Source of the DNA: an uncultured bacterium | GTDB taxonomy: Bacteria; Verrucomicrobiota; Kiritimatiellia; CAIKKV01; CAITUY01 | Direction of reading: 5' to 3' | DNA length: 64,000 bases | NCBI GenBank assembly: GCA_903958395.1 | Contig: CAJBSZ010000101.1 | Location: 3,894-67,893 of the forward strand | Part shown: positions 17,184 to 61,412 of the stretch, one piece after another | Numbering within the stretch: position 1 is the stretch's first letter | How the letters are laid out: every line of letters begins with the position of its first letter | Program-made: the position numbers and the translations under genes | The notes under the pieces: model-generated | What the model saw: the letters and a program-made list of their open reading frames with translations, nothing else | The model's database searches: none | Told to the model about the DNA's origin: nothing

Positions 17184-17231
17184 GTCCCGTTCTTATACTG
17201 GGCAGGGGGGGGAATGGCAAGGAGAGAAGCG

Positions 17232-18815: not shown

Positions 18816-18841
18816 TTTAGGACTGTTTTTGCGGTGCCGGT

Positions 18842-20251
18842 TCAATAGGCGTTGGTGCGAGCCGTAAGGGTGCGGAGCAGGATTTTGAAGTCGAAGGACA
18901 GGGACCAATTTTCCAGGTAATAGAGGTCGTACTTGATCCGTTCCTCGATACTGGTATTGCCCCTCAGCCCATTGACCTGGGCCCAGCCGGTCATGCCCGG
19001 TTTGGAGACATGCCGCCACATGTAACGGTCAATGTCATCCTTGAACTTTTCCACAAAGTGCGGCCGCTCCGGCCTCGGCCCGATCAGGCTCATGTCGCCC
19101 CGCAGCACATTCCAGAGTTGGGGCAGTTCGTCAATGTTTGTGGTGCGGAGGAAGGATCCGATCCGGGTCCGGCGAGGATCATTTTCAATGGTCCAGACGG
19201 GGCCCGTCTCCTTTTCGGCGTCGGTTCGCATGGTTCGGAGCTTGTAGATACTGAATTCCTTGCCGTTTTCACCGCATCGTTTCTGTTTGTAGAAAACAGG
19301 ACCTGGCGAGGAGCGTTTCACCAGCAGGGCAACCAGCGCGAGGAAGGGGGCGATGACCAAAAGGCCTGCAAAGGCACCGCAGATATCCTCTATGCGTTTG
19401 AGGATCCGGTTCCAGAAATAGTCCAGCGGCCACCGGCTGACCCCGAGGAGGGGAATGTCGTCGATGGTCTGCATGTCCATGCTTCCGGTCATGATGCGGA
19501 ACATGTCAGGCACCATGTTGAAGGTGATCATATTTCGCTCGCAGGCGAGGATGATTTCCAAAACCCGTTGGTGGCCGATATTGCTGTCGCTCAGGATGAT
19601 CTGGTCTGCGGGATGGGAATCGAGAATTGTGTCAAGCTCCTGAAGTTCGCCACGGATCAGGTAATTTGGTAAAGCAGGGTCGATTTGGGCCGTTCCGGAT
19701 CGGATGAATCCAACTACTTTTGAACGGAGGCGGGGATCCGCCTCCAATCCGCGTTTCAGATGAGCGGCAACATAGTCCGTTCCCACGATCAGAATGCGTT
19801 TGGACTGATGGCCCCGGCGCGCCAGTCGGATTTCGAACCGGAACAGAAGATAACGCTCAACCATAACAAAGACCATAATGGTCAGAAAAGAGAGCCCGAT
19901 CGTGAGACGCGAGATAGGCGGTTCGGTGCGGAAGGCGAAAGCCAATGCCGTGGTCAGGAGGATCCCGATTCCGATGGATCGGATGAGCCTCGGGATTTTT
20001 CCGGAAAAGCTGCCGAGCTGGGGGCGGACATAAAGGCCGAGGGATCGGAAAATAAAAAGGAATATGAGGGTGGCAATGGCGGAGCCCCAGCCATAGAGAA
20101 AGCACAGGTTGGGCGGCCAGCTGTCCACCCCGATAAGTCCGCTGTAGAAACGGAGCCAGATGGCCGCGACAAACCCGCAGAAAATGGCCAGGGCATCGGC
20201 GGTTACGGCCAAGCCGCTCGTCAGCGCATCCATGGTGTCGCGTATTCGCAT
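18842..20251 (-). CDS. polyprenyl-phosphate hexose-1-phosphate transferase (WbaP/bacterial sugar transferase family)
   Basis: C-terminal sugar-transferase domain ...DELPQLWNVLRGDMSLIGPRP...; 469 aa with N-terminal TM helices. Confidence 0.8.
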   Translation of the reverse strand: MRIRDTMDALTSGLAVTADALAIFCGFVAAIWLRFYSGLIGVDSWPPNLCFLYGWGSAIATLIFLFIFRSLGLYVRPQLGSFSGKIPRLIRSIGIGILLTTALAFAFRTEPPISRLTIGLSFLTIMVFVMVERYLLFRFEIRLARRGHQSKRILIVGTDYVAAHLKRGLEADPRLRSKVVGFIRSGTAQIDPALPNYLIRGELQELDTILDSHPADQIILSDSNIGHQRVLEIILACERNMITFNMVPDMFRIMTGSMDMQTIDDIPLLGVSRWPLDYFWNRILKRIEDICGAFAGLLVIAPFLALVALLVKRSSPGPVFYKQKRCGENGKEFSIYKLRTMRTDAEKETGPVWTIENDPRRTRIGSFLRTTNIDELPQLWNVLRGDMSLIGPRPERPHFVEKFKDDIDRYMWRHVSKPGMTGWAQVNGLRGNTSIEERIKYDLYYLENWSLSFDFKILLRTLTARTNAY

Positions 20252-40222: not shown

Positions 40223-40738
40223 TTACCAGTATTCCACCACGCATTTGACGACCCGCTGCCCCAGATCTGAGGCGGCCTTTGGAAGAGCCAGGCGGCGTGC
40301 GCTGGGAAGATCCGCGAGCGCCGTGAAGGTGGTGAAGCCAATGACCCCCTTGGTGTTCACCACGATTTCATTCGAGGGAAGCTTTTTAAGAATGACATCA
40401 GCGGTCAGGATCAGGCGATATTCCTTGGCGGTCGTGGCCTGATCCCGGCGATACCGGAGGGGCTCCAGTTCATATTTCCTGACGGTGACCTCCAGGATGC
40501 TGTTGGCCTGCTCTTTCGGGAGAACCTTCAGGGATCCGTCCTTCTGGAATTCCTGAATGGCGGCACCGGTCAGGATGGTCTCCAACCCGGGTTCCTTGGC
40601 CTCAATGGTGAATACCGGGATGTTAATGGAGGTGATCCCCGGGGGGAGATTGCTACCCAGTTTGTAGCCCACGCATCCGGAGGTGGCCAGAACCAGGCTG
40701 GCGAGTCCAAGAAGTCCCCAAAAATTACTTTTTTTCAT
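40223..40738 (-). CDS. lipoprotein, LptE-like (tentative)
   Basis: Signal peptide with a TSGC lipobox immediately followed by GYKLGS (E. coli LptE, recalled from memory, has C-GWHLRD at the equivalent position); ~170 aa. Confidence 0.35.
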   Translation of the reverse strand: MKKSNFWGLLGLASLVLATSGCVGYKLGSNLPPGITSINIPVFTIEAKEPGLETILTGAAIQEFQKDGSLKVLPKEQANSILEVTVRKYELEPLRYRRDQATTAKEYRLILTADVILKKLPSNEIVVNTKGVIGFTTFTALADLPSARRLALPKAASDLGQRVVKCVVEYW

Positions 40739-41747
40739 GGCTGTTGATGTCCTTTCTCAAGTTCTCGATCCGTTGGCGTGCTTGTCCTGCACATTCATGT
40801 GAGGCGTATTTTTTCAAAAATCCCTCGTAGGCGATCAGGGCGGCTTTCGGGCGATGAGCGATTTGATCGTAATATCGGGCCAATTCAAACGCCCGCCGGG
40901 CCTGCTCATCGTTGAGTTGTGCCAGAAGGGTTCTGGACTCCGTGATTTTTTCGTGGCCGGGATAGGCACGGATGAATTGAACCAGCGCCGCCCGGGCGGC
41001 ATTGCAGGAGTTTTCATCGTTGGGGCGGTTCCGGTACAATTTGGTCAGGCACTGGGCTTCGCGGAAGGAGGCCTGCGCCAGGATCGTCTCGTCGTTGTAA
41101 CGGTTCTGGACGATCTCAAAGGCGGCAACCGCCTCTTCCTCCTCCTCATTCAATTCATGAATGATGCCGATGTTGAGCTGGCAGGTGGCGGCATACTCCC
41201 AGGTGGGCGCATTCAGAATAATCTTTTCAAAGAGGGGGATGGCCCGCTCGGGGGCTTCAAATCCGGGAAATAACAGAAAGGCGCCCTTCCGCGTGGTCAT
41301 GAGGTAATTGGCAATTTTGAACTGACGGCCCAGAACGTCCCGGTAGTCGAACTGTCCGGGATAGTAATCAAACAGGTATTGATACTCGTCAAAGGCCTTC
41401 TCGTAGAGTTCGCGTTCTTCCTGAACCCGGGCAAGCTCGAATTGAGCCTTCGGGGCTTCGGGCGAGTCCGGCCACGCGTAGACCAGCGCCTGATAGGCGT
41501 TGGCCGTCTTCCGGTAGCGTTTATCCTGATGGTACTGTGCGGCCAGCTTCATCTGCTCTGCGGCCGTGGCACAGGAGGGACTGCGGTACCAGCGAAGACC
41601 CCGCTTGACCTGTGCTTTTTCACCTCTGGATTGATTCTGGGTTGACGGGGCGCCGGGGGGCGGAGTGGGCATGTTGTCGTAACTGGCCCGACAAGGGCTC
41701 GCCCAGAGCAACATCAGGAACAATAATATCGGGATCATGAAACGCAT
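40725..41747 (-). CDS. TPR-repeat envelope protein with signal peptide (BamD/YfiO-like, tentative)
   Basis: Signal peptide followed by multiple TPR-like helical repeats; start at internal ATG 41747; 14-nt overlap with the downstream lipoprotein gene. Confidence 0.45.
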   Translation of the reverse strand: MRFMIPILLFLMLLWASPCRASYDNMPTPPPGAPSTQNQSRGEKAQVKRGLRWYRSPSCATAAEQMKLAAQYHQDKRYRKTANAYQALVYAWPDSPEAPKAQFELARVQEERELYEKAFDEYQYLFDYYPGQFDYRDVLGRQFKIANYLMTTRKGAFLLFPGFEAPERAIPLFEKIILNAPTWEYAATCQLNIGIIHELNEEEEEAVAAFEIVQNRYNDETILAQASFREAQCLTKLYRNRPNDENSCNAARAALVQFIRAYPGHEKITESRTLLAQLNDEQARRAFELARYYDQIAHRPKAALIAYEGFLKKYASHECAGQARQRIENLRKDINSHEKK

Positions 41748-41760
41748 ATGGGGGCATACT

Positions 41761-42663
41761 TTAGGGGGCGTGGCGGAGAGGGTCAAGAGGGGAATGAGCG
41801 GCCGCGACGGAGGTGGTGGACGATGTCGGGCAGGCGATGCAGCGGCAGAGTCCCGCCTCTTTCAGTGCCTGCGGGCCATCGAAGAAGGGCTTGTCCGGAA
41901 CCGTGAATCCCACCCGTCGGGCCTCATCCACCAGAATGTGAAGATAGTCTGTCATATGTCGCGCCGTGTAGGGATTGACATCATGAAAGTTCAGGATGAC
42001 GGTGAGCGAGGCCGCCGGACTGCCGCTGTGCCTGGCGTTTTGAAAGATCTCAATGAGGGCGTTCCGGATATGGATCCGCCGGAACAGGCTGCCCTTGTAG
42101 CCGTAGATCAGGCCGTCCCTCGCCCGGATATCCGCCATGAGCATGTGAAGTCCCAGCGCCTCATAGAGGGCCTGTGTCGTTTGATTTTTTGCCCCGAACG
42201 GCGGGCGCACGAATATCGGATCCGAGCCCGTGATGTCCCGAAGCAATGCCTGGGCCGCCTTGAGTCCTGCCTCCAATTCAGCGGGCGGGACTTTCCGGTG
42301 ATCCACATGGCCCCGGGGTGATACACTATGAATGCCGAGCAGGTGCTCCTCTGCGGCGAGGGCCCGCATGACGGCGTGGCCTTCCGGGGTGCCCCCTCCG
42401 CGCGGATGCCCCGTTTGGACAAAAAAGAGGGCCTTGGCGCCCGGTTGCACATCATTGGTGGCAAGTTGATGCAGGATGGCGAGGGTCGGGTTGTAGGGCT
42501 TTGTGATGCTGGGACCGTCATCAAAGGAGAGGATGAAGCGGATCACCGGCGGCGGAATGCCCGCATCATGCGCGGAGGGGGCGGGAATGGAGCGGCAGGA
42601 TGACAGGACTCCTGCCAGCAGGATCAAGCCCGACAGCTGTGCTGGAATCGCCGGGGATTTCAT
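41761..42663 (-). CDS. polysaccharide deacetylase (NodB-homology) lipoprotein
   Basis: Signal peptide with an LSSC lipobox, then the SFDDGP catalytic motif of carbohydrate esterase family 4; ATGA overlap with the activase gene. Confidence 0.65.
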   Translation of the reverse strand: MKSPAIPAQLSGLILLAGVLSSCRSIPAPSAHDAGIPPPVIRFILSFDDGPSITKPYNPTLAILHQLATNDVQPGAKALFFVQTGHPRGGGTPEGHAVMRALAAEEHLLGIHSVSPRGHVDHRKVPPAELEAGLKAAQALLRDITGSDPIFVRPPFGAKNQTTQALYEALGLHMLMADIRARDGLIYGYKGSLFRRIHIRNALIEIFQNARHSGSPAASLTVILNFHDVNPYTARHMTDYLHILVDEARRVGFTVPDKPFFDGPQALKEAGLCRCIACPTSSTTSVAAAHSPLDPLRHAP

Positions 42664-43634
42664 CGGGAGCCTCCCGCCTGAACCCCTTGTTCCCATTTCC
42701 GGCAGCGTCCCCCGCTGCGGCCCAGGGATTCGTCATGATCCAGGATCTCTATCACCTCGCACTGGTTCGGGCAGTCGTTGCACCGGAAGCCGCGTGTGGC
42801 GATCTCACGGTCACAGAGGCTGTAACCACGAAAACGGGTTCGGATCGGATTGGCGCGGGCTGCGAGCAGGGCCGCGCCATAAGCACCCATGACCATGTTG
42901 TGTTGCGGGATGATGACCTCGGTCTGGAGAGCCTCATTGAAGGCCCGGCGGATTCCCCGGTTGGCGCTGACCCCGCCCTGCAGGACGATGGGGGGGCGGA
43001 TTTCCTTTCCGGCGCAGACATTGCTGAGGAAGTTGCGCACCATGGCCTGGCACAGGCCCATGACGATATCGTGCTGCTGGTGGCCGGCTTGCTGCTTATG
43101 GATCATGTCGGATTCGGCAAAGACGGTGCAACGCCCCGCAATGGTGGTGGGATCGCTCGAGAGGAGCGCCCGTTCGCCCAGTTCCTCAATGGAGAGGCTG
43201 AGTCGCTTGGCTTGTGAATCCAGAAAACTTCCCGTACCCGCGGCGCAGATCAGGTTCATGGCAAAGTCCACCACCACGCCGTTGCGCAGGATCGTGACCT
43301 TGCTGTCCTGCCCCCCGATTTCAAAAATGGTGTTCGCCTCCGGGTGCAGATGCAGCGCAGCCCGGGCATGGGCGCTGATCTCATTCTTCACGATGTCCGC
43401 CCCGACGACGGCTCCGATCAGGGTGCGGGCACTCCCCGTGGTGCCGACTCCGGCGATTTCCAGGGTGCCGGGAACCGTCTGGCGCATCTCCAGAAGTGCT
43501 TTCTGAACGGAGTGGATCGGATTGCCATCAACCCGCCGGTAGGCGGTGAAGAGGACCGTCGAGCCGGAATCAATCAATACCAGATTGGTGCTGATCGAGC
43601 CGACATCAATCCCGAGATAGGCTTGGGTTGTCAT
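42660..43634 (-). CDS. BadF/BadG/BcrA/BcrD-type ATPase (HgdC-like activase of acyl-CoA dehydratase/reductase systems)
   Basis: AYLGIDVGSISTNLVL ASKHA-fold start and IFEIGGQDSKV motif; C-terminal Cys pair consistent with a bridging [4Fe-4S] cluster. Confidence 0.75.
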   Translation of the reverse strand: MTTQAYLGIDVGSISTNLVLIDSGSTVLFTAYRRVDGNPIHSVQKALLEMRQTVPGTLEIAGVGTTGSARTLIGAVVGADIVKNEISAHARAALHLHPEANTIFEIGGQDSKVTILRNGVVVDFAMNLICAAGTGSFLDSQAKRLSLSIEELGERALLSSDPTTIAGRCTVFAESDMIHKQQAGHQQHDIVMGLCQAMVRNFLSNVCAGKEIRPPIVLQGGVSANRGIRRAFNEALQTEVIIPQHNMVMGAYGAALLAARANPIRTRFRGYSLCDREIATRGFRCNDCPNQCEVIEILDHDESLGRSGGRCRKWEQGVQAGGSR

Positions 43635-44704
43635 GATGAGGCCTGCTTTCTTCGTTCCCGCAGAATGTCTGTAAAGGCTTCCAACCGGGTGACGATCCCG
43701 ACATGGCTGCTGTGTTCGTCAAATGACAGTTCGAGAATGGGGATCGAGTGGTCCTGGCTGATCTTGCGCAGGATCGGGCGGATGGTGATTTCCGGCATAC
43801 AGCCGGTGGGGGCGATATGAATGACCCCGTCATAGTGCTCCTGGGCGCAGCGCAGGGTGTAGGCCACGGATTCCAAGGCGTGGCCGCCCACCCGCGACTT
43901 GAGATAGGGACGCGCAAGCCGGTTCAGGGAGTCACGGGAATCCGGGCTCCGGAATCCGATGTGGAAGATTTTAGCCAGTTCGTTTCCGAGCAGGAAAAAA
44001 TTCTGAACCTCGACGCCCAGGCTGCCCAGGGTTTCTTCCAGGTTGTGGTTCAGATAACTGTCCCGCAGGATTGAGGCTTCGCCCAGCAGTCCGATTTTCA
44101 GGGGCCTGGCCGCTGCGTCGGTGGGGACGGTGTGGAAGCGTGCGGGAATCGTCCGGGACAGGGCCCGGATGGCAGGCACGGTTCGGGCCTCGTCCAAATC
44201 CTTGAGGCACGTATTCATGAGGCGGGTGGTGTCGCCGGTGTGGAGCTCCCGTGCCCGGGTTTCCCAGGCCAGCTTTTCAATGGCGTCCACGGCATGAACC
44301 TTGAAAAAAGCGCGGCCGCAGCAGCGGAGGAAATCGCCCATCGTGGGGTCGAAATGGCGGATCAGGGGCGGCTTGATCCCGTCATAACCCAGTCCAAAGA
44401 TGAACAGATTGAATCCGCGATCCCTGAGGATTTTCTGCTGCAGTTCCCGGTAGTACCGGAGCCGGCAGGTGCCCACGCTGTTGACCATGACCCCGTATTC
44501 CACGCCTTCCATGGCCGCCTTGATGAAATAGCCGGTCGTAGCCTTAAAGGCCAGACAGCTGAACTCGGGCGAGGCGTCCGTCCCGAGTTTCATGATTTCA
44601 GGCGTGGTGCAGCGGGTGCTCCACGGGGTGACTCGCAGGCACTCCACGGAGGCGGCCAGCGCAATCGAATAGTTTCCCCAGGGGGGTATGGCCAGGGCTG
44701 TCAT
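43631..44704 (-). CDS. DUF2229/COG3580-81-type protein (uncharacterised partner of HgdC-like activases)
   Basis: Cys-containing motifs (GTCRLRYY, RCCGRA, PTGCMPE); start trimmed to the ATG at 44704, which abuts the upstream stop. Confidence 0.55.
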   Translation of the reverse strand: MTALAIPPWGNYSIALAASVECLRVTPWSTRCTTPEIMKLGTDASPEFSCLAFKATTGYFIKAAMEGVEYGVMVNSVGTCRLRYYRELQQKILRDRGFNLFIFGLGYDGIKPPLIRHFDPTMGDFLRCCGRAFFKVHAVDAIEKLAWETRARELHTGDTTRLMNTCLKDLDEARTVPAIRALSRTIPARFHTVPTDAAARPLKIGLLGEASILRDSYLNHNLEETLGSLGVEVQNFFLLGNELAKIFHIGFRSPDSRDSLNRLARPYLKSRVGGHALESVAYTLRCAQEHYDGVIHIAPTGCMPEITIRPILRKISQDHSIPILELSFDEHSSHVGIVTRLEAFTDILRERRKQASS

Positions 44705-44705
44705 G

Positions 44706-47153
44706 TTACCATCTCGTTGAATCCACAAATGCCTCCAGCCGGGTATCCGTTCCGGCCTGTGCGGCGTGTTCATCCACCACTAAAGTCATGGTGGGAATCC
44801 CTTTTGTTTTGAGTATGTCGCGGTTGAATTCCATCACAATGGAGTCGCATCCGCAATTGAAGGAGGTGAGTTGGATGACGGCGGCGCATTCAGCCGCATC
44901 CAGGGTCTTGAGATGGTGGATCATTTTTCCGCAGGTGTCCCACTTGATGTTGCCCGTCGGCATTTCCTCGCCGTCAAAGGGCATCAGGTCAACATCCACA
45001 TCGAGTCGTTTCAAGGTGGCGAGAATGGGGCCGGAAATATAGTCGTCGTGGAGATTGTAGGGATGGCTGATGACCAGGAGTCTTTTCCGTGCCGGACCCG
45101 GGGGGCGGACGGGCGGACGGCGCGCCTGGGCGAGGGCGGCGAGGGCGGCATCGGCGGCGGTGCACGTCAGGGCTTCCTCCGCGCCAAGGCGGCGGCCCAG
45201 TTCCAGCAGGGAGTCGCGCAGGGGCGTTATGGTTTCATTGATATCAAGGCTCAGGATCCGGGTGCGGTTCCCGAACTGGGCCTCGGCAACATCGGGCAAA
45301 GCGGAAAGTTTGGGGCAGGCAATGTGTCCCTTCAGGCCCGACAAAAGACGTGGAACAAAAAGCCGATCCACTTTACCGGCGAGTTCGGCCAGGTGGGCGT
45401 CGAGTAGTTTGAGTGGCAGGCAATGTTCCGATTCCGAGATCAGGACGGCCTGCTCGACCGTGTGACGGGTTGAAGCGCCGGACATTACGGGGGTGTGTCC
45501 GAGCTGGGTGAAGAAGGTTTCGAAAAGGGAGGGATAGTAAAAATAATACAGGGCGCGGGGGATGCCGATGGTCAGCGGCCTGAAACCTGTGCCATCCACC
45601 ACCGTTTTCAAAGCGGTGAAAGCGTCTGGGCGCATCTCCTGGAGAATCATGAGGCTGGCGTTGACGGCGGCCTTGGTGGCCATGGGCACTCCGCCCCCGT
45701 ACTCCGCCCATTGGCCGCCCAGCAACAACCGTTTGACGGGGGTCGTGAGAGTGGCGAGGCGGGCGTGGATGTTTTTTTGGGTCGGCTTGTGTCCCATGAT
45801 CGAGCCGTCCCGGTTTCCCGTGTAGCGGTGGAACGTAACCGGAGTGGCCACCTCCCTGACCTCGATGTGGCGGCGAAGGCCGGGGATCAGCAGGCGCTCG
45901 ACCCGGTCGAGAATCGTGTCGGTGAATTCCTGCTTATACCGGCGATAGGCTTCCCCGCGCTCCAGACCGGGTCCGGTTTCCCACTGATTGTGATGGGACA
46001 GGTAGGAGGGGCACTGGATGAGGAGAGTGCCTTTCCCCGGAGGGGCCAGGGAGGGATCGCGGAGAGAAGGGGCCAGAACGCTGATCAGGGTGGAATGGGC
46101 TTCTCCACTGACCCGATCTTCCAGGGGTATGGAGTCCTCAGTCAGGCGAACCAGGGACTCATCCAATCCAAGCGAGGCGGGGGGGCAATCCAGTCCCAGA
46201 TAAATTGAGAAGCTGGAGTAATACAGATCTGCATGACGAAGGCGCTTGAGTATTCTGGCGGGAACGCTGGCAGGGGGAAGCATCGTGGTGAAGAGCTGTT
46301 CCACATCGCAGGCGGCGATGACGTAGCGGGCGTGCACGGTGTCGCCGGTGGCGAGCCGGACTCCGGTCGCTTTTTTGGAGGCGTTGACGAGGACTTCACG
46401 GACGCGTTGGTTCAGGGTGATTCGGCCGCCGTTTTCGGTGATTTTCCGGCACAGCCAGTCCACCATTACGGCGCAGCCTCCCTCAGGCGGCTTTTGGAAA
46501 TCACCTGTGAAAGCGAACCCCAGCGGGACGAGAACCGACATCATGGTGCCATCGGAGTGAAAGAGATTCAGGAGTTCGCGGGTCTTGAAATAGCGGGTTA
46601 ATCCCCTGGCGGCCGGGGTTGATACCATATGGCGGATGGGCCAGACCCAGCCCGTCATGGCCAGGCCGTGATGCAGGAGTTCGCGGGGGGACATGGTTTT
46701 CACCGACCGCATGCGGTTGTCGAGGAACAGCATATGATGGCCGAGGCGTTCGGCGTCCCGGAAGAGTTTCTGAATCCCCTTTGATTCATGGGGAAAGTCC
46801 TGGATCAGTTGATCGCGAAGTTCCAGAGGGTTCGAGGTGAGCAGATAATTATGACCGGTGTTTTTATAGCGATGAATCCGCTGGAGCGGGACATAGCGCG
46901 GGCCGTCGTTGCCAATGGCGTGCTGAATACGGGCGAGAAAGCCGCCCGGGCGGCATTGGTTCAGCCATTCAAGGGAGGCGTCAAACGTGAATCCCTTGCG
47001 GTGGAACGAGGCCAGACAGCCGCCCGCCTGTGATTCTGTTTCGAAGAGCTCGACACGGAGACCGGCCTTCGACAGCAGGGCGGCGGCAGTTAATCCTGCA
47101 ATACCACCCCCGATGATCACGACATCGCAGTGAGTTGGACGGCCCATAGTCAC
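44706..47153 (-). CDS. fusion: CrtI/phytoene-desaturase-family FAD oxidoreductase (N-terminal ~500 aa) + DUF2229/HgdB-like domain (C-terminal ~300 aa)
   Basis: N-terminal CDVVIIGGGIAGLTAAALLSKAGLRVELFE dinucleotide-binding motif and the amine-oxidase/CrtI-like body. The C-terminus carries TIGIPRALYYFYYPSLFETFF and SFNCGCDS motifs typical of activase-associated DUF2229 proteins. Confidence 0.6.
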   Translation of the reverse strand: MTMGRPTHCDVVIIGGGIAGLTAAALLSKAGLRVELFETESQAGGCLASFHRKGFTFDASLEWLNQCRPGGFLARIQHAIGNDGPRYVPLQRIHRYKNTGHNYLLTSNPLELRDQLIQDFPHESKGIQKLFRDAERLGHHMLFLDNRMRSVKTMSPRELLHHGLAMTGWVWPIRHMVSTPAARGLTRYFKTRELLNLFHSDGTMMSVLVPLGFAFTGDFQKPPEGGCAVMVDWLCRKITENGGRITLNQRVREVLVNASKKATGVRLATGDTVHARYVIAACDVEQLFTTMLPPASVPARILKRLRHADLYYSSFSIYLGLDCPPASLGLDESLVRLTEDSIPLEDRVSGEAHSTLISVLAPSLRDPSLAPPGKGTLLIQCPSYLSHHNQWETGPGLERGEAYRRYKQEFTDTILDRVERLLIPGLRRHIEVREVATPVTFHRYTGNRDGSIMGHKPTQKNIHARLATLTTPVKRLLLGGQWAEYGGGVPMATKAAVNASLMILQEMRPDAFTALKTVVDGTGFRPLTIGIPRALYYFYYPSLFETFFTQLGHTPVMSGASTRHTVEQAVLISESEHCLPLKLLDAHLAELAGKVDRLFVPRLLSGLKGHIACPKLSALPDVAEAQFGNRTRILSLDINETITPLRDSLLELGRRLGAEEALTCTAADAALAALAQARRPPVRPPGPARKRLLVISHPYNLHDDYISGPILATLKRLDVDVDLMPFDGEEMPTGNIKWDTCGKMIHHLKTLDAAECAAVIQLTSFNCGCDSIVMEFNRDILKTKGIPTMTLVVDEHAAQAGTDTRLEAFVDSTRW

Positions 47154-47584
47154 GCCAGAGTGAAAAACGCGGCGGCATCCAGGATGGAAAGCCCGTTTTT
47201 GTGAAGGGCTTTGGAGGCCTGGTCGGGCTTGTCCACCCGGACAATCATGATTGCGTTACTGCCCCGCTTAAGGGTAAAGGCGTACATGTATTCGATGTTG
47301 ATGGCATTGGGTTCCAGGATGGCCAGAATGCTTTCCATACCCCCGGGATGATCCGGAATTTCAATGGCCAGTACATCGCTGATAGTCACCACGCAGCCGG
47401 CCTTCTCCAGTACGTCCCGGGCCTTTTCCCACTCCCTGATCATGATCCTCAGAATGCCGAATTTTCCAGTGTCCGCGAGGCAGAGGGTTGGGATATTGAT
47501 GCCTGCCGCCGCCAGCACCTTGCAAGGATGGCCGAGGCGGCCGGGTTTGTTTTCCAGACAGACAGACAGTTGTTTCAGTGTCAT
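47150..47584 (-). CDS. tandem ACT-domain protein
   Basis: Two ~65-aa beta-alpha-beta-beta-alpha-beta ACT-like units; 4-bp overlaps on both sides. Confidence 0.6.
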   Translation of the reverse strand: MTLKQLSVCLENKPGRLGHPCKVLAAAGINIPTLCLADTGKFGILRIMIREWEKARDVLEKAGCVVTISDVLAIEIPDHPGGMESILAILEPNAINIEYMYAFTLKRGSNAIMIVRVDKPDQASKALHKNGLSILDAAAFFTLA

Positions 47585-49608
47585 ACGCCCTCCTTTCCGG
47601 TCAACAGTTGTGAAGCCATGAAATGTTTCCGAATCGCACCGGTAAGGGCCATGGGATCGGTCCGGTTCAGCCGGTCAAGCACCCGTTCCCACCGATAGGC
47701 AAAACTGCCCTTTTCATCACGCGGGCGTTGTTTAAAAAGCGTATCGAAGGACCGTTTTCGCCGTGTATAATCCTGTTTCACATGAAGAAACCGTTCCGTA
47801 AATGAGGCAAGATAAGCCTCCAGCACTTCTCCGGGAGAGGAAAAAAAGGGGAGTCGGCGTCGGATGGGCTCCGCATAGGCCTCCGCAAAGGAAGCCAGAT
47901 CAGACTGATAATCCGTGAAGGTGCCGGTGTGATCGGCGACGATGATTTCCCTGGGCATGCCGAACTCGTCCTCTATCAAAACCTCATCGCCATCGTCGAA
48001 CAGCACGGCGTTTTTCAGGTTCAGGCGGCCTGTGATGATATTGGACGCGGCGGCCCGGCCCAGTAACCTCGCAAAGGCGAGGGAATACGTGAGGCTCTGG
48101 AAACGGGAACGGGGGATCTTGTCGGTGGCCATGCCGGAGAGATAGTCGCGTTCGAAATAGGTGGACCAGATCTGCTGGCCGTCATACCGGGTTCCGTGGT
48201 AGTGCTCGCTGATTTTGCGGGTTGTGATGCGGGCGGGCAGGTTCATGCCCAGCTGACGGCAGCCCAGTCTGCGATCCAGGATATATTCGGTGTAGTCCTC
48301 CGCCTCCATGATGGCGGGGAGGAGATCCTTGCCCTCGTTCAGGTGTTCCCGGATTCCCCATTTCTGCATGCGAAGAATACGGACAACAGGGTGCGGCGAA
48401 CTGTTTTGTTTGATCTCCGCCACATACACATCGCGGCGGCCGGAGCTCGAGGGTCGGCGTGATAGCGAGCCGATGACCCGGCCGACATTGACATAATCAA
48501 TATCCCCGAATTCGCGAAGGAAATTAAAGATGAACCCGCGTGCCTTTTCGTCGCAGAGGATCCTCAATTCGGAATCAGGGGGTGAACGATCCGCTTCATC
48601 GAAAAGGCTGTCGAACATCAATTCCCCCTCTTCGATGCGGCCGCCGGGGAGCCATTCGATCTGCATGAAGAATTCGGAACTCAGTCCGAGGATGGTTTCT
48701 TCGGGAAGGGCTTCGCCTCCCTGACCGATCAGGCATGAAAACATCAGGTTTCGCCAGTCGGGATTATCGGGATTGTCTTCCCTCATTTCCGGCCGCACGG
48801 CATCGCGAAAGGCCGCTTTGAGGTGTTCATAACAGGTGCGGATATCCGGAGGAGATTGATCCATGGGTTCGCAGGGTTTGAAGCTGGAATGGTCGAATGA
48901 TTTGTCGGTGGAAAAAAAGGCTACTTCGGGGTGGCCCATGCGGTTGTAGCGGCATGAAAAATCCCGGATTTCAATCAGATGTGCCTGGAGTTCATTGTCC
49001 GGCAGGGTTTCGAGTTCACAGAACTGCTGGTAGGTCAGGAATCGCGTGCCGATGTCGCGACTGTAATAGTAGATGGAACGGCCCCCGATCGGCAGCATGG
49101 CTGAGGCGATCATGCGTTTCATTTCATCAGGACTTTGGGGGAGCAGGGCAATCCGCCAGTTTTCGCCACGTTCCTTGATGGCATAGCGGACTTTTTCATT
49201 CATGAGGTTGAGAAACTTGATTTTCTGCTTGGAGACCAGTTCCTGAAGCAGGTCGTCGGCTTCGAAGGCCAGTGCCATGTTCTCGGGATCAGGCCGGATC
49301 AGGATGCTCCCGGGGTCCATGATCAGGTCAACCGACAGCTGCCATTCCAGCATCTCGTCCTCTTCGGACAGCGGGGGCTGGTTGGCTTGTTTCCGGGTGG
49401 CGTTAAGATCGGCGATATAGGCAAAGCGCTGGGTGGCGTGGATGCCGGGCAGGGTGACGAGGGTCCGGCTCCGGGGAAAGATCGTGCCGATCCGTGAGAT
49501 CAATCGTCCCTGCTGATCCTTCGCAAGCGGGTGTTCACCTAGAATTCGAATAGTCATTCCCTCGCATACTACCAATCCCTCCCTGTATTGAACAATCTGC
49601 TTTTTCAT
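47581..49608 (-). CDS. large hypothetical protein; C-terminal region with AceK-like (isocitrate dehydrogenase kinase/phosphatase family) motif, tentative
   Basis: No standard motif in the N-terminal half. The C-terminal half has AAASNIITGRLNLKNAVLFDDGDE, which resembles the AceK catalytic-loop/metal-binding segment AAANIFPGDMLFKNFG...FYDYDE (recalled from E. coli AceK). Start placed at ATG 49608. Confidence 0.35.
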   Translation of the reverse strand: MKKQIVQYREGLVVCEGMTIRILGEHPLAKDQQGRLISRIGTIFPRSRTLVTLPGIHATQRFAYIADLNATRKQANQPPLSEEDEMLEWQLSVDLIMDPGSILIRPDPENMALAFEADDLLQELVSKQKIKFLNLMNEKVRYAIKERGENWRIALLPQSPDEMKRMIASAMLPIGGRSIYYYSRDIGTRFLTYQQFCELETLPDNELQAHLIEIRDFSCRYNRMGHPEVAFFSTDKSFDHSSFKPCEPMDQSPPDIRTCYEHLKAAFRDAVRPEMREDNPDNPDWRNLMFSCLIGQGGEALPEETILGLSSEFFMQIEWLPGGRIEEGELMFDSLFDEADRSPPDSELRILCDEKARGFIFNFLREFGDIDYVNVGRVIGSLSRRPSSSGRRDVYVAEIKQNSSPHPVVRILRMQKWGIREHLNEGKDLLPAIMEAEDYTEYILDRRLGCRQLGMNLPARITTRKISEHYHGTRYDGQQIWSTYFERDYLSGMATDKIPRSRFQSLTYSLAFARLLGRAAASNIITGRLNLKNAVLFDDGDEVLIEDEFGMPREIIVADHTGTFTDYQSDLASFAEAYAEPIRRRLPFFSSPGEVLEAYLASFTERFLHVKQDYTRRKRSFDTLFKQRPRDEKGSFAYRWERVLDRLNRTDPMALTGAIRKHFMASQLLTGKEGV

Positions 49609-49645: not shown

Positions 49646-50566
49646 ATGAATTCGGTATACACCACAACGATTACCCGGGAAGCGCGCACGCGCGGGATTC
49701 AAATTGAAGTGATTGATCCCCGGACTCCCATTTTCGTGCTCAGGCATAAGGGAAAGTCAATCCGGTGTTACAACGCCCTGACGGATCGGGTTGGGGCGGT
49801 GACTTTTCAGATGACCCAGAACAAGGCCCTGGCCAATGTCTTTCTCAAGTCCCGCGGGTTTCCCGTTCCGGCCCAGCAACTTTTCACGGAGCCGGTGTCG
49901 GCGGAGCGTTTTTTGAAGCGATACCGCAGTATTGTTGTTAAACCCTGCTCCCAATGGGGCGGGCGCGGGGTGTCGGTGGCGGTGAAAACGGCTGAGGAAT
50001 TGGCCTGTGCCGTGCGTTTTGCGAAGCGGTTTGAGGAGGAGATCATTCTCGAACAGTATGTCGAGGGAGTGGACTACCGCCTGATATTTGTGGATTTCAA
50101 ATTCGTAGCGGCTATTCGCCGGCGATCCGCCCATGTGGAGGGGAATGGCCGGGATTCAATCCGGAACCTGGTGCAGGCAAAGAACCGGCAGGAACGGCGC
50201 GTTGATCCGAGTCATATCATTCCGCTCGATGCCGAGACGGCTCGCAACCTCAAGGTTTTAGGCCTGTCGTGGGAGCAGGTTCCTGCGGCGGGGCGGGTTG
50301 TTCGCGTCAGGTTGACCTCCAACTACCATACTGGCGGTGATGTGGATGTGGTGACCCATACGGTCAATCGGAAGCTGGTGGCCTTGGCCAGGCGTGCCGT
50401 GAAAGCGCTGAACGTTCCGGTCATTGGCATTGATTTCCTGGTGAATGAGGCAAGCGGTCGGTCGTGGCTGATTGAGTTGAGCCCCGATCTGGCAATTTCC
50501 CCGCCCGAGGGCGAAGAGGTGGCCCGGCATTTCATGAACTTCCTGTTCCCGGAGACAAAACGATGA
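49646..50566 (+). CDS. stand-alone cyanophycin-synthetase-like (CphA G-domain/RimK-type) ATP-grasp ligase
   Basis: IVVKPCSQWGGRGVSVAV...IILEQYVEGVDYRLIFVDFKFVAAIRR closely follows the CphA ATP-grasp core KP.dGN.GRGV...vvE.yi.G.DyRllVv...vAA..R. Confidence 0.65.
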   Translation: MNSVYTTTITREARTRGIQIEVIDPRTPIFVLRHKGKSIRCYNALTDRVGAVTFQMTQNKALANVFLKSRGFPVPAQQLFTEPVSAERFLKRYRSIVVKPCSQWGGRGVSVAVKTAEELACAVRFAKRFEEEIILEQYVEGVDYRLIFVDFKFVAAIRRRSAHVEGNGRDSIRNLVQAKNRQERRVDPSHIIPLDAETARNLKVLGLSWEQVPAAGRVVRVRLTSNYHTGGDVDVVTHTVNRKLVALARRAVKALNVPVIGIDFLVNEASGRSWLIELSPDLAISPPEGEEVARHFMNFLFPETKR

Positions 50567-51864
50567 AATCCTGTCATCTGGTTGGCGTTGCGGGTGTGGG
50601 GATGAATGCCTTAGCTCAGGCACTCAAGGGGGGTGGGTGGGCGGTCAGCGGCTCGGACCGTTATGAGGATCAGGGCCAGGATCTTGAGGTGATCCGGAAG
50701 CTGAAGGAGGCGGGAATTCGATTTTATCCGCAGGATGGATCCGGGATATCCCGAGAGACGGGTGCGGTGGTCGTGAGTACCGCGATTGAGAAGGATAATC
50801 CCGATATCGTCGCTGCGGAAAGGCTTGGGGTCCCTGTGCGGCACCGGGCCGAAATGCTAGCCGAACTCGTTCAGGGAAAGAAAACGGTGGCGATTGCGGG
50901 GACCTCCGGAAAAACGACGGTAACGGGCATGGTCGGCTGGCTTCTCGAGCAACTCGGAGCTGATCCCACGGTGGTCAATGGCGGGGCTCTGGTGAACTGG
51001 GCGGATGATCATCATGTGGGAAACGCGCGAACAGGCGGCTCAGGACTTTGCGTGATTGAGGTCGATGAGAGTGATCGCTCGCTCCTGCGGTTTTCACCCG
51101 ACCGGGCCTTGATTACCAATATGTCGGCTGATCATTTCAGCCTGGAGGAGACCGTCGGGCTTTTCAGCCAGTTCAGGAGTCAGGTCCGGTGCGATTGTAT
51201 TGCAGGGTGGGATCCCGGAATGCCGTGGCAGGGCCTGAAGCCGGTGCTGAGCCGGACCGGGTGCCGCTTCGCTTATGGCGGGCTTGAGTTCGAAATTTCG
51301 TTACTAGGGGCACACAACGCCGAAAATGCGCTTCAGGCGGTTGTGCTGTGCCAGCGAATGGGTTTTGACTTAGGTCGCATTCGCGATGCCCTGGCTCAAT
51401 TCAAGGGTATTCAGCGGCGCCTGGAGCGGGTGGGGGAAGCCGGCGGGGTGACGGTGGTGGATGAGTATGCCCATAACCCGGCGAAAATTTCGGCCGCCTG
51501 GCGGGCTGTGGCTCCTTATTATTCGCGGGTCACCGCGTTCTGGCGCCCGCATGGATTCAAGCCGTTGTCCCTGATGTTCAACGATCTGGTGGCGATGTTC
51601 GGGGACGTATGCCGCCCGCAGGACCGGCTTTTTCTGATGCCGGTGTATTACGCGGGAGGGACGGTGAGTAAGGCGATGGACTCGGATGTGCTTGCGACGG
51701 CGTTGCAGGCGCGCGGGGTGCCCGCCGTATGGGTTCCGGATTACGACCGGTTGATGTCCGGGATTATGAAAGACAGTCAAGCGGGCGAGGTCGTGCTATG
51801 CGTGGGCGCCCGGGACCCCGGCATCCCCCGGTTTGCCCGCGAGTTGGTGACTCGTCTGGGATGA
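50563..51864 (+). CDS. MurC/Mpl-family Mur ligase (paralog of the fused murC)
   Basis: HLVGVAGVGMNALAQALKGGGWAVSGSD Rossmann N-domain, VAIAGTSGKTT P-loop and a VVDEYAHNP C-domain motif; it resembles Mpl/MurC rather than MurE/F. ATGA overlap with the ATP-grasp gene. Confidence 0.7.
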   Translation: MKSCHLVGVAGVGMNALAQALKGGGWAVSGSDRYEDQGQDLEVIRKLKEAGIRFYPQDGSGISRETGAVVVSTAIEKDNPDIVAAERLGVPVRHRAEMLAELVQGKKTVAIAGTSGKTTVTGMVGWLLEQLGADPTVVNGGALVNWADDHHVGNARTGGSGLCVIEVDESDRSLLRFSPDRALITNMSADHFSLEETVGLFSQFRSQVRCDCIAGWDPGMPWQGLKPVLSRTGCRFAYGGLEFEISLLGAHNAENALQAVVLCQRMGFDLGRIRDALAQFKGIQRRLERVGEAGGVTVVDEYAHNPAKISAAWRAVAPYYSRVTAFWRPHGFKPLSLMFNDLVAMFGDVCRPQDRLFLMPVYYAGGTVSKAMDSDVLATALQARGVPAVWVPDYDRLMSGIMKDSQAGEVVLCVGARDPGIPRFARELVTRLG

Positions 51865-59298: not shown

Positions 59299-60504
59299 CT
59301 ATTTTCCAAGAACCTTCCTGAACTGCTGGGTTAGCAGGGGGAGGATCTCAAACAAGTCGCCCACGATGCCGTAGGTGGCGACCTTGAAGATGGGGGCATC
59401 CGCGTCCTTATTGATGGCCACAATAATATCCGAGGACTGCATTCCGGCAAGATGCTGGATCTGGCCGCTGATTCCCACCGCGATGTAGATCTTGGGGCAG
59501 ACCGTTTTCCCGGTCTGGCCAACCTGATGCGAATAGGGGATCCAATTCGAATCCACGGCGGCACGCGAGGCACCCACACCCGCGCCGATCACATCAGCCA
59601 GTTCGCGCAGCAGCGCGAAGTTTTCAGGAGTCTGGAGGCCGCGACCGCCCGACACAATGATGTTGGCTTCCGCGATATTCATCGTGGTTTCCACCTCGGG
59701 CACGAATTTCAGACGACGTGCCTTGGATTGAAGCAGGACTTCCGCGATGGTTTCCATCGAGACTTCCCCCTTGCGGGCGGGGTTGACTTCGGCTTCCTTC
59801 ATCACCTTGTGCCGCACCGTGGCCATCTGGGGCCGCGCGTTCGGGGTTTCAATGGTGGCCATGATGTTGCCGCCGAACGCGGGGCGGGTCTGGAGCAGAT
59901 TCAGGGTCTTGGGGTCAATCGCCAGTCCGGTACAGTCCGCTGTCAAACCGGCATTCACCCGTACGGCCACTCGCGACACCAGGCTGCGCCCGATGGTCGA
60001 GGCGCCGCAGAGGAACACATTGGGCTTGTGCCGTTTGACAAGGTCGATCAGGACATTGGCGTAGGATTCATCCTGGAAATGCTCGAGCGCGGGACGATCG
60101 ACCAGGTACACCTTGTCGGCGCCGCGGGCGATCAGTTCATCGGTCTGCTTCTGAACATTGCTGCCCAGCAGTACGGCGCACAGCTTCATGCCCAGCGAGT
60201 CGGCCAGCTTGCGCCCTTCCCCCAGCAGTTCGAAGGTGATGGACTGAATCACGCCGTCATGCTGCTCGGCGAACACCCATACATCCTTGAAAGATGACAG
60301 GTCGATTGTGGCGGCGGATTTTTCCTTCATCCAGATGGCCTCGAACTTGCAGGAGGCGACGCAGGCGCCGCACAGCGTACACTTCATGAGGTCAATGACG
60401 GGGACTGTTTTGCGTTCCGTCTGGGTGATGGCACCGAACGGACAGGCTTTGACGCAGGCGCCGCAATAAACGCATTTCTCGTTGATTTTGATGGGATCGC
60501 TCAT
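59299..60504 (-). CDS. etfA: electron transfer flavoprotein alpha subunit with N-terminal 2x[4Fe-4S] ferredoxin domain
   Basis: N-terminal [12 protein letters not shown] and [11 protein letters not shown] ferredoxin motifs, followed by the EtfA FAD-binding domain. Confidence 0.8.
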
Positions 60505-60514
60505 GGTTGGTTCC

Positions 60515-61309
60515 TTAGTTGGCGGCGCCCAGAATGGCGTCCTTCAGTTTGGCTATGAGTTGGGGGACGACTTCCGAGGGTTCGCCCTTCAGCATTTCGC
60601 CACCCTGCCGAGCTGGCGGGGTGAAAATCTTGACCACCTTGGTGGGTGAGCCTTCCAGCCCGATGCACTTGGGGTCGCACTGGAGATCGGCGGCCTTCCA
60701 GGTGGTGATGACCGCCTTCTTGGCGGCCAGCTTGCCCTTCAGGGATGGAAGACGCGGCTCATTGATTTCCTTTACGACTGTGAGCACGCAGGGCAGGGGA
60801 GCCTGAATGACTTCGTAGCCGTTTTCCATCAACCGTTCCGCAACGATCGTTTTTTCATCAATCGATTCGATCTTGCGGACATAGGTGATCTGGGGGAGAT
60901 CCAGATGAATGGCAATGCCGGGCCCGACCTGAGCGGTGTCGCCGTCGGAAGCCTGTTTGCCGCAGAGAATGATGTCAAAAGCGCCGATTTTCCGGATGGC
61001 CATGGCGAGCGTGTAGCTGGTGGCCCAGGTGTCGCTACCGGCGAAGGCCCGATCGGACAGCAGGATGCCGTCATCGGCGCCCATGGAAATGGCTTCCCGC
61101 AGGGCGGCATCAGCCTGGGGCGGCCCCATGGAGAGCACGGTCACGGTGCCGCCTGTCTTGGCTTTCAGGCGGAGGCCTTCCTCGATGGCGTACATGTCAA
61201 AAGGGTTGATAATCGCGGCTACCCCGTCCCGCATCAGGGTGTTTGTTTCCGGATTGATCTTCACATCAGTGGTTTCCGGAACCTGTTTGATACAAACAAC
61301 GTATCGCAT
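60515..61309 (-). CDS. etfB: electron transfer flavoprotein beta subunit
   Basis: MRYVVCIKQVPE... EtfB N-terminus; start trimmed to the internal ATG. Confidence 0.8.
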   Translation of the reverse strand: MRYVVCIKQVPETTDVKINPETNTLMRDGVAAIINPFDMYAIEEGLRLKAKTGGTVTVLSMGPPQADAALREAISMGADDGILLSDRAFAGSDTWATSYTLAMAIRKIGAFDIILCGKQASDGDTAQVGPGIAIHLDLPQITYVRKIESIDEKTIVAERLMENGYEVIQAPLPCVLTVVKEINEPRLPSLKGKLAAKKAVITTWKAADLQCDPKCIGLEGSPTKVVKIFTPPARQGGEMLKGEPSEVVPQLIAKLKDAILGAAN

Positions 61310-61412
61310 ACTGTTCTCCTTTATAAAACGGGGGCGCATTATATGAATTAAACGGTGAGATGCAAGGCGGAATTACCGGTGTAAATAGCTCAACCGTGGA
61401 TTCATGGATATA

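Follow-up and report, generated by a model that had tools for sequence, protein, structure and literature searches.

A CrtI-like flavoprotein fused to DUF2229 in a three-component module from an uncultured Kiritimatiellia bacterium: relationship to PlsA/PlsR and Ger

Anaerobic synthesis of bacterial ether lipids has so far been explained only by PlsA/PlsR and Ger, and these are the only characterized enzymes with a DUF2229 domain that we found. PlsA/PlsR, the plasmalogen synthase of Clostridium perfringens, is encoded by a single fused gene in Enterococcus and Listeria, is oxygen-sensitive and occurs in strict or facultative anaerobes (PMC9702350; PMC12838417); the legend to Fig 8 of PMC12838417 names Act1, Act2, Red1, Red2 and a [4Fe-4S] cluster. 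Ger, from Thermotoga maritima (Tmari_0479) and Desulfatibacillum alkenivorans, carries the domains PF01869, PF09989 and PF06050 and converts the sn-1 ester to an alkyl ether, only under anaerobic conditions (PMC13159169). It is one polypeptide of B-B-D-H... architecture; all alkyl-ether producers are said to share its B-B-D core, and homologues were reported in the Planctomycetes-Verrucomicrobia-Chlamydiae (PVC) group, Deltaproteobacteria, Spirochaetes and DPANN archaea (PMC13159169). Here we describe a module of the same domain types in the DNA of an uncultured Kiritimatiellia bacterium (GenBank assembly GCA_903958395.1, contig CAJBSZ010000101.1, positions 3,894 to 67,893). The whole 64,000-nucleotide (nt) stretch that was analyzed is called the window, and the module lies within a run of eight minus-strand genes at 40223–49608.

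A preliminary description of this DNA presented the eight genes as one translationally coupled system that tied a redox module to three envelope lipoproteins and matched no characterized pathway. The last statement was too strong, as the parts are those of PlsA/PlsR and Ger (PMC13159169). The eight open reading frames (ORFs) themselves were confirmed, and identical proteins have been called independently on public contigs. We letter them A to H, from 49608 down to 40223, and the divergent plus-strand pair beside them X and Y. Gene C is divided into C1 (residues 1-515, the flavin domain) and C2 (residues 516-813, the DUF2229 domain). The triad denotes the genes for DUF2229, HGD-D and activase (here C2, D and E), window-type denotes the triad clade that includes the window, and L numbers denote loci of relatives that were fetched for comparison.

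A three-component enzyme of the DUF2229 branch

The core of the module consists of the following:

45603..47147, minus strand: C1, flavoprotein of the CrtI/amine-oxidase superfamily, residues 1-515, fused to the DUF2229 domain
44706..45602, minus strand: C2, DUF2229 catalytic subunit, residues 516-813, equivalent to 'Red1' of PlsA/Ger-type proteins
43631..44704, minus strand: D, HGD-D-type catalytic subunit, a paralogue of the DUF2229 domain, equivalent to 'Red2'/PlsR
42660..43634, minus strand: E, HgdC/BcrA-type ASKHA ATPase activase with an extra C-terminal Cys4 module

Family matches, the three-plus-three cysteines of C2 and D, the activase cysteines of E and the predicted fold of D together argue that C-D-E is a bona fide three-component member of the radical-enzyme superfamily of benzoyl-coenzyme A (CoA) reductases and 2-hydroxyacyl-CoA dehydratases (BCR/HAD). 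C2 matched DUF2229 at 106 bits, and its residues C576, C611 and C765 were invariant in 63 sequences. D had been called a DUF2229 protein, and some of its homologues match both families, but Pfam assigns D itself to HGD-D (30 bits against a 28.4-bit cut-off); its C50, C80 and C302 were invariant. The AlphaFold2 model of D had a pLDDT of 91.4, and its best 20 Foldseek matches in the PDB were all to HadBC (2-hydroxyisocaproyl-CoA dehydratase), the double-cubane protein DCCP, MbdON (of the Mbd 3-methylbenzoyl-CoA reductase) or BzdNO (of the Bzd benzoyl-CoA reductase), while a search of the PDB with the sequence of D gave nothing useful (HadC, E 0.14). E matched BcrAD_BadFG at 160 bits and TIGR00241 at 195 bits, against a cut-off of 125 bits. 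Its cluster cysteines C130 and C169, within the motifs AAGTG and CTVFAESD, were invariant in 53 sequences, as was the pattern C285-x2-C288-x3-C292...C311 of the Cys4 module in its tail. From these residues we infer ATP-driven, low-potential electron transfer from E to C2/D.

As a proxy for PlsA, PlsR and Ger we used a 1409-amino-acid (aa) Ignavibacteriales fusion of the form Act-Act-Cys4-DUF2229-HGD-D, found in L078. E aligned with its Act2 domain and the same Cys4 module (46% identity, E-value 3e-89), C2 with residues 671-978 (30%, 5e-36) and D with residues 1033-1384 (26%, 3e-19), and the three are collinear along the fusion. This alignment, the presence of the full PF01869, PF09989 and PF06050 set, and the synteny of the triad are the grounds for reading C-D-E as an enzyme of the PlsA/Ger kind. 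By its sequence, C-D-E belongs to the DUF2229 branch, whose characterized members are those two enzymes alone.

The flavoprotein domain C1 matched Amino_oxidase (81 bits) and NAD_binding_8 in Pfam and carries an invariant GxGxxG motif. Its match to TIGR02734 (crtI_fam, 133 bits) was well under the cut-off of 238, and all equivalogs were far under theirs, which places C1 by sequence in the CrtI superfamily only and not in the CrtI family. The best PDB match was CrtI (4dgk, 3.5e-12), and C1 was only 24-25% identical to the Kuenenia stuttgartiensis protein kuste3336 and to Pantoea agglomerans CrtI. Orthology to kuste3336, a 'phytoene desaturase', was rejected at 24% identity, which is no better than that to CrtI; orthology to kuste3607 was also rejected, as the partial sequences available (PMC4790861 Table S6) gave no tblastn match to the window. 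Stand-alone homologues of C1, 50-63% identical, form an unnamed subfamily in many anaerobes across phyla. They were observed in Kiritimatiellales, Desulfobulbaceae, Spirochaetes and others, and are unusually conserved for an unnamed protein of the CrtI superfamily. Two of them, in L006 (10001-11641) and L093 (8225-9847), had no conserved neighbor. A set of genes for a short-chain dehydrogenase/reductase (SDR), a flavin adenine dinucleotide (FAD) protein, a ketoacyl synthase, acyl carrier protein (ACP), an acyltransferase and a ligase (L006 16459-21641) lies 5 kb from one stand-alone homologue. Fusion of a CrtI-like FAD domain to DUF2229 is rare, and a PVC subclade is the only place where it was seen: of the best 150 representatives (50%-identity clusters) of the DUF2229 domain, only one had the length of the fusion, ~816 aa, and no further close relatives with the fusion were among the metagenome matches listed, from the same scan that yielded L104.

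The eight-gene run in relatives

The remaining genes and the element discussed below are:

47581..49608, minus strand: A, conserved PVC-wide protein of ~650 aa with a protein-kinase-like predicted fold
47150..47584, minus strand: B, stand-alone tandem-ACT protein (ACT_8 pair, 91.9 bits)
41761..42663, minus strand: F, CE4/NodB deacetylase lipoprotein (Polysacc_deac_1, PF01522, 51.5 bits against a cut-off of 23.1)
41758..41786, minus strand: promoter-like element TTGACC-17 nt-TAAAGT, ending 10 nt before the start of G and overlapping the 3' end of F
40725..41747, minus strand: G, secreted tetratricopeptide repeat protein, BamD/YbgF-like
40223..40738, minus strand: H, LptE lipoprotein (LptE, 37.5 bits against a 23-bit cut-off)
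49646-50566, plus strand: X, TIGR03103-like ATP-grasp protein (248 bits), cyanophycin-synthetase-like
50563-51864, plus strand: Y, MurC-like ligase (murC 287 bits, under the cut-off)

The tight junctions of the run, as read from the sequence, range from a 14-nt overlap to a 13-nt gap, in agreement with the preliminary description. ATGA overlaps join A to B, where the overlap is preceded by a strong GGAAAGGAGGG, and also D to E and E to F, the start of F being ATG 42663. C is separated from B by 2 nt if it starts at ATG 47147, or overlaps it by GTGA if it starts at GTG 47153; there is a 1-nt gap between C and D, a 13-nt gap between F and G, and a 14-nt overlap that couples H translationally to G. 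The run is the longest of co-directional genes in the window, in which every other run has at most four. Tight spacing is the norm here, with gaps of 15 nt or less in 17 of the 31 same-strand neighbor pairs elsewhere in the window.

All eight proteins were mapped onto relatives of C at graded distance. Gene presence was taken from tblastn; longest-ORF calls were sometimes misled by antisense ORFs in GC-rich loci. The closest loci in the genome collection (88-93% identity) were from uncultured Verrucomicrobiota/PVC. With identity given as that of C, the gene orders were as follows:

88-100%, window and L009-L012: A-H order kept as far as the contigs reach, with full A-H in the identical-protein loci L001, L002 and L004
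74-76%, L013: ACT gene 9 kb from C
74%, L094: A, a lytic transglycosylase (SLT) gene instead of the ACT gene, then C-D-E-F-G-H
73%, L089: C-D-E-F, an inverted methyltransferase gene, then G-H-rpsT-sigma factor, with no A or B
65-66%, L014 and the P0010 contig: F-C-D-E among unrelated flanking genes
52-54%, L007, L015 and L017: C-D-E only

At 73% identity and below, A, B, G and H were lost or relocated and only C-D-E, with or without F, persisted; G-H was not beside C-D-E at 66% or below. This synteny bears out the activase, DUF2229 and FAD module as a genuine conserved unit. It does not bear out a single eight-gene system, which splits into at least three units in relatives. Orthologue synteny had been set beforehand as a test that could refute the eight-gene reading, and, with A, B, G and H scattered, that reading fails. 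On sequence grounds, then, at least three units were brought together recently, and in this lineage specifically, to give the run; these would be X and Y divergent from A (with B), C-D-E-F, and G-H. The stepwise decay of synteny, the presence of the element before G-H whatever lies upstream, and the occurrence of A alone or with X/Y all support this mosaic.

Three envelope lipoproteins had been tied to the redox module, and the tie was upheld for F only; G and H are separable from it in relatives. F was observed in three gene orders, namely C-D-E-F (window, L089, L094), F-C-D-E (L014, P0010 contig), and on the opposite strand beside an unfused triad (L021). It has a conserved lipobox, L-[AS]-[SA]-C-RS, and the motifs FDDGP, RPPFG and NFHD, and the spacing of its His-His motif, HSxSxRGH, is unusual. 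Its C-terminal tail is 10-20 residues longer than in L089, L094, L014 and L021 and reads into the element before G. On these comparisons, the frame of F in the window (41761-41800, minus strand) was extended over its neighbor's putative promoter after rearrangement.

That element was found by a consensus promoter scan. Over 39.7-50 kb, the counts of the promoter and terminator scan were not above shuffled expectation, and the element is considered meaningful on its conservation across relatives, whatever lies upstream, and not on those counts. A near-identical element precedes G in L009-L012, L094 and L089. In L094 it is in the F-G spacer, just after the stop codon of F, and in L089 it is within a true divergent intergenic region. 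The conserved TTGACC-17-TAAAGT, with its predicted promoter activity, is at odds with a single unit free of internal promoters. G was under the curated cut-offs (TIGR03302, 57 bits vs 81; YfiO, 24.6 vs 25), H always follows G in relatives, and the order G-H-rpsT-sigma factor was kept in L089 and L094 independently of C-D-E-F. These sequence comparisons indicate that G is a housekeeping outer-membrane gene and that G-H is an outer-membrane biogenesis pair, a separate unit with a putative promoter of its own.

Family models from Pfam and NCBIfam showed the earlier domain calls to be essentially right for B to H and for the divergent pair of an ATP-grasp protein and a MurC-like ligase. The AceK-like motif reported in A was not upheld: AceK was rejected as an identity, as A matched neither AceK nor any other Pfam or NCBIfam model, and a search of the PDB with its sequence gave nothing useful. 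The true start of A is probably ATG 49557 and not 49608. This is because its homologues are 643-651 aa long and residues 1-18 of the model had a pLDDT below 50. The A family (1773 matches, no Pfam domain) is 55-90% identical among the best 120. The predicted fold is protein-kinase-like, with K400, E437, D538/D541 and D559 as candidates for the conserved Lys/Glu/Asp residues. Its members stand alone in genomes of Kiritimatiellae and Planctomycetaceae, or adjoin the ATP-grasp/Mur-ligase pair where C-D-E is absent, and the arrangement of X-Y divergent from A was retained in L092 and L094. Gene order across relatives thus makes the divergent X/Y pair, and not C-D-E, the conserved partner of A, and together they may form an undescribed kinase-plus-peptide-ligase unit. 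A 776-aa fusion elsewhere in the window (20684-23014, minus strand) joins a complete MurC-like Mur ligase to MurB (FAD_binding_4 and MurB_C), so that Y is an extra MurC paralogue.

B adjoins C only in relatives of at least 88% identity; it is upstream of C in L013 and is replaced by the SLT gene in L094. B is, on this distribution, a recent lineage-specific insert between A and C. In the Syntrophaceae locus L051 (3673-5405), a B-like tandem-ACT gene (39% identity) adjoins a PaaK-like ligase gene, and a triad lies at a distance of 6 kb. Such ligases may be the usual partners of ACT_8 proteins. An Rfam scan of the whole window gave no riboswitches, the sole matches being two tRNA genes (5865-5937 and 7702-7773, plus strand).

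Distribution of the triad and its neighbors

A scan of one genome per species produced 80 loci, nearly all of which had the order DUF2229, HGD-D-type subunit and single activase, and the triad was syntenic in more than 70 fetched loci. The lineages were PVC, Acidobacteriota, Aminicenantes, Spirochaetes, Brocadiaceae, Syntrophus/Smithella, Fibrobacteres, Bacillota, Saccharibacteria, Pacebacteria and Nanoarchaeia. The carriers are strict anaerobes, with Candidate Phyla Radiation (CPR) and DPANN genomes among them. Across phyla, the window-type clade shares 47-70% identity in D (PVC, Acidobacteriota, Spirochaetes and Deltaproteobacteria) and 59-73% in E. Two paralogous triads were observed tail-to-tail in L023 and in L096 (10001-15847 in each), one of the window type (52/65/68% identity) and the other Bacillota-like (28/25/46%).

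Lipid-type genes were found near the triad in at least 11 of 42 non-redundant window-type loci, counting genes for B12-radical-S-adenosylmethionine (SAM) and SPASM radical-SAM proteins, ACP, ketosynthase, SDR, PlsC-like acyltransferase and PaaK-like/AMP ligase. The triad lies within large clusters of such genes in L021 (1789-20897), in L016 (6297-14742), in L071 and, upstream, in L023/L028. These clusters hold genes for AMP ligases, MipA, ketosynthase, a CrtI-like FAD protein, SDR, a lipoprotein and a CE4 protein, as well as for B12-, HemN- and SPASM-type radical SAM proteins, ACP, a PlsC-like acyltransferase and a PaaK-like ligase. Neighbors were homologous to kuste3342 (33%), kuste3343 (41-43%) and kuste3608/kuste2803 (28-31%), and included a PaaK-like ligase, the type that is annotated for kuste3344. 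The window itself holds a B12-binding radical SAM protein with DUF4080 (2079-3737, plus strand), whose likeness to kuste3342 is weak (24%) and whose position is unrelated to the module.

A C1-like flavoprotein is a separate, adjacent gene in Tichowtungia (L016), and other CrtI-family genes lie within 3 kb of the triad in L021 and L071 and adjacent to it in L104. In L104 (5936-16032), from a distant lineage, the order was B12-radical SAM, FabF, FabF, CrtI-like FAD protein (30% identical to C1), DUF2229, D-like protein, FabD and FabG, with no activase within 10 kb. A lipopolysaccharide (LPS) kinase of the Kdo/WaaP family (PF06293, 119-124 bits) is fused N-terminal to a window-type DUF2229 domain in L037 (252-2048) and L095 (1592-3349), which are from two different metagenome-assembled genomes (MAGs) of Lentisphaerae lineage. 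In L037, genes for D, E and a B12 radical SAM protein come after the fusion, and the locus is near yceD-plsX; in L095 a GT4 glycosyltransferase gene precedes the fusion.

Approximately 10 kb from the module, the window has a gene for a ferredoxin-domain electron transfer flavoprotein (ETF) alpha subunit (59299-61339, minus strand) and an adjacent 274-aa ORF that is a putative ETF-beta. In the 54% relative L007, a similar Fer4-ETF gene (21421-22445) is 9 kb away from C-D-E. Fer4-ETF may be a low-potential electron source for the activase, or its position may be coincidence. Other envelope genes of the window (14933-19019 and 25181-27553, minus strand) encode a PAP2 phosphatase, an LptF/LptG permease, two PMT_2 (ArnT-like) glycosyltransferases and one PAP2-PMT_2 fusion of 790 aa.

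Proposed function and comparison with known systems

We lean slightly towards the reading that C-D-E, within a mosaic gene run, is a split PlsA/PlsR/Ger-like enzyme that modifies an envelope lipid, the substrate being putative. The envelope-lipid role suggested in the preliminary description is plausible, although not with all eight genes. In the mechanism that we propose, a dimer of E around a [4Fe-4S] cluster held by C130 and C169 would receive an electron from ferredoxin or flavodoxin, and ATP hydrolysis by E would let it pass on at very low potential. The electron would then reach a C2/D heterodimer with an Fe-S cluster on the three invariant cysteines of each subunit. C2/D would reduce the acyl ester carbonyl of the lipid to a ketyl-type intermediate and eliminate oxygen, so that the ester would become a (vinyl) ether, as proposed for PlsA/PlsR. 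The fused CrtI/RetSat-like C1 would act on the resulting double bond, most simply by saturating it to an alkyl ether, and the exported F might modify the same envelope lipid across the membrane, e.g., by de-N-acetylation of a sugar head group. The two electron-transfer steps are based on family membership and conserved residues, and the two later ones on homology and context. The flavoprotein is linked to the triad by the PVC fusion, by the separate adjacent gene in L016 and by the CrtI-family genes at L021, L071 and L104. The link to the envelope is based on F in three gene orders and on the Kdo/WaaP-DUF2229 fusions. A lipid context is suggested by the lipid-type genes near at least 11 of the 42 window-type loci, by the gene order of L104 and by yceD-plsX near the triad of L037.

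Several observations weigh against this reading. F is absent from the 52-54% relatives L007 and L015. In a neighbor-joining tree the window type formed a clade of its own, to which neither the split triads of Bacillota nor the fused PlsA/Ger-like proteins belonged, and likeness to PlsA, PlsR and Ger was judged via the proxy fusion only. The second, divergent triad beside the window type in L023 and L096 points to distinct functions in one organism. The clade is linked to no cultured organism or lipid analysis, and the best 120 homologues of D that were listed bear MAG or generic names only. Several triad contexts resemble fatty acid synthesis (ACP, FabF, FabD, FabG) and fit a thioester and an ester equally well. 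Read-through may also place all eight genes on one transcript. Ger by itself is reported to produce saturated alkyl ethers in E. coli (PMC13159169), which leaves no obvious need for a dedicated saturase domain.

A thioester substrate is the basis of an alternative that we consider unlikely, if still a serious one. C-D-E would act on acyl-ACP or acyl-CoA thioesters inside a specialized fatty-acid pathway, and not on finished lipids; DUF2229/HGD-D would be a radical dehydratase or reductase, the flavoprotein an acyl-chain desaturase or enoyl reductase, and the other pathway genes of the window organism would be elsewhere. This would fit L104, whose FAD, DUF2229 and D-like genes have a B12 radical SAM gene and two FabF genes on one side and FabD-FabG on the other, and the position of the triads in L021 and L016 amid ACP, ketosynthase, SDR, PaaK-like ligase, PlsC-like acyltransferase and radical SAM genes. 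Neighbors in those two loci are homologous to genes of the Kuenenia candidate 'ladderane' clusters, which hold CrtI-like genes, and the structurally characterized relatives of D all use CoA thioesters. However, most window-type triads, including this one, have no ACP or ketosynthase within 7-10 kb, and a triad that stands alone is the pattern of enzymes remodelling bulk lipids. The only characterized DUF2229 enzymes act on glycerolipid esters, and C1 is a poor match to kuste3336. The triad is also present in CPR and DPANN genomes, for most of which fatty acid synthesis is not known.

That C-D-E handles a soluble metabolite seems improbable to us. It would then be an amino-acid-derived 2-hydroxyacyl-CoA dehydratase or a small-molecule reductase of the double-cubane type, with the ACT protein B as amino-acid sensor and the flavin domain as electron entry point. 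The fold of D matches HadBC and DCCP about equally, B is translationally coupled to C in the window lineage, and the Fer4-ETF pair and its counterpart near C-D-E in L007 would suit this role. On the other side, none of the loci inspected has CoA-transferase, acyl-CoA or fermentation genes with the triad, B was inserted recently, the recurrent neighbors are lipid genes, and the cysteines are arranged three and three over two subunits (HAD-like) and not six in one subunit as in DCCP. Least credible, and very improbable in our view, is that all eight genes form one translationally coupled system in which the redox module is tied to the envelope lipoproteins, A and the ACT protein. The seven tight junctions in the longest co-directional run of the window speak for it, as do the recurrence of the whole order in L094 at 74%, with SLT for ACT, and the Kdo/WaaP-kinase fusions elsewhere, which hint at an LPS connection. 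It is opposed by the loss or relocation of A, B, G and H at 73% identity or less, by the conserved promoter-like element and the own neighbors (rpsT, sigma factor) of G-H, by the occurrence of the A family without C-D-E, and by the ordinariness of tight spacing in this DNA (17/31 pairs).

The preferred reading, of a split enzyme acting on lipid esters, can be carried further, to a proposal that we regard as rather doubtful: that the FAD-DUF2229/HGD-D/activase module and its CE4 partner are an unrecognized anaerobic route to ether-linked or reduced envelope lipids of PVC bacteria, in which a PlsA-type reductase captured a RetSat/CrtI-like saturase. If true, vinyl-ether formation and saturation would occur on one complex. 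The window-type triad (PVC, Acidobacteriota, Spirochaetes, Deltaproteobacteria and Brocadiaceae) would be a lipid-tailoring enzyme that had been missing for anaerobic diderms, with a link to the radical-SAM/CrtI 'ladderane-candidate' clusters and, via the Kdo/WaaP-kinase fusions, to LPS-type glycolipids. The non-isoprenoid ether lipids of anaerobic bacteria are environmental biomarkers and bear on the 'lipid divide'. As judged from its genes, the window-type triad is related to PlsA/Ger but distinct and split; it is strongly conserved and widespread in freshwater and sediment anaerobes. It has been tied repeatedly in evolution to lipid-tail flavoproteins, to fatty-acid/radical-SAM genes and to envelope glycolipid enzymes (CE4, Kdo/WaaP). 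C-D-E(-F) is a compact, clonable unit of three or four genes, and the eight-gene 'operon' should not be treated as a unit.

Among known systems, the candidate 'ladderane'/unusual FASII clusters of Kuenenia stuttgartiensis (kuste3335-3352 and kuste3603-3608), with counterparts in Desulfotalea (PMC4790861; PMC2649909), resemble the surroundings of the triad in other genomes, which include homologues of kuste3342, kuste3343 and kuste3608/kuste2803 along with ACP, FabF, FabG and CrtI-like genes. They differ in that activase, DUF2229 and HGD-D genes are absent from their gene lists (PMC4790861 Table 2; PMC2649909), and the window itself has none of those neighbors. CrtI, CrtISO and RetSat, a family that acts on C=C or C-C bonds of long lipophilic chains, share with C1 the Rossmann GxGxxG motif and the amine-oxidase fold over ~500 residues, but C1 is only ~25% identical to CrtI, far under the NCBIfam cut-offs, and in an unnamed subfamily. 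A fusion of a CrtI-like domain to DUF2229 was not found described in the literature searched, and searches on DUF2229, the Pfam accessions and PVC ether lipids returned the Ger paper only (PMC13159169), with no mention found of an FAD-DUF2229 architecture.

HadBC with HadI, HgdAB with HgdC, BzdNOPQ, MbdONPQ and DCCP/DCCP-R have in common with C-D-E an ATP-driven activator and two paralogous Fe-S subunits. The predicted fold of D matches only these systems, and the activase cluster cysteines are conserved. Sequence identity to them is 10-17%, however, their substrates are CoA thioesters or small molecules, and no CoA-handling genes are near the window module. The activase E also carries the extra Cys4 module, which HgdC is not known to have, and DCCP has its six cysteines in one subunit.

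PlsA/PlsR and Ger are closer. A BcrAD_BadFG activase, a DUF2229 'reduction' domain and an HGD-D domain are common to PlsA/PlsR and C-D-E, and a Cys4 module (CxxCxxxC...C) follows the activase in both E and L078, the generality of this likeness resting on that one fusion. The window has one activase gene where PlsA/PlsR has two fused activase domains, its order is Red1-Red2-Act and not Act-Act-Red1(+Red2), and its catalytic domains are 26-30% identical to the fused representative, L078. The window module also adds an N-terminal CrtI-like flavoprotein and an associated CE4 lipoprotein. Ger has the same three domain types and its reported lineage spread is the same as that of the triad. It differs in its single-polypeptide B-B-D core, which C-D-E lacks, PF01869 being single and in a separate gene and PF09989 being fused to the flavoprotein, and the window-type triad is a distinct clade. 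C-D-E is thus not a categorically new system; what is new here, relative to PlsA/PlsR and Ger, is the split form, the single activase, the flavoprotein fusion and the CE4 partner.

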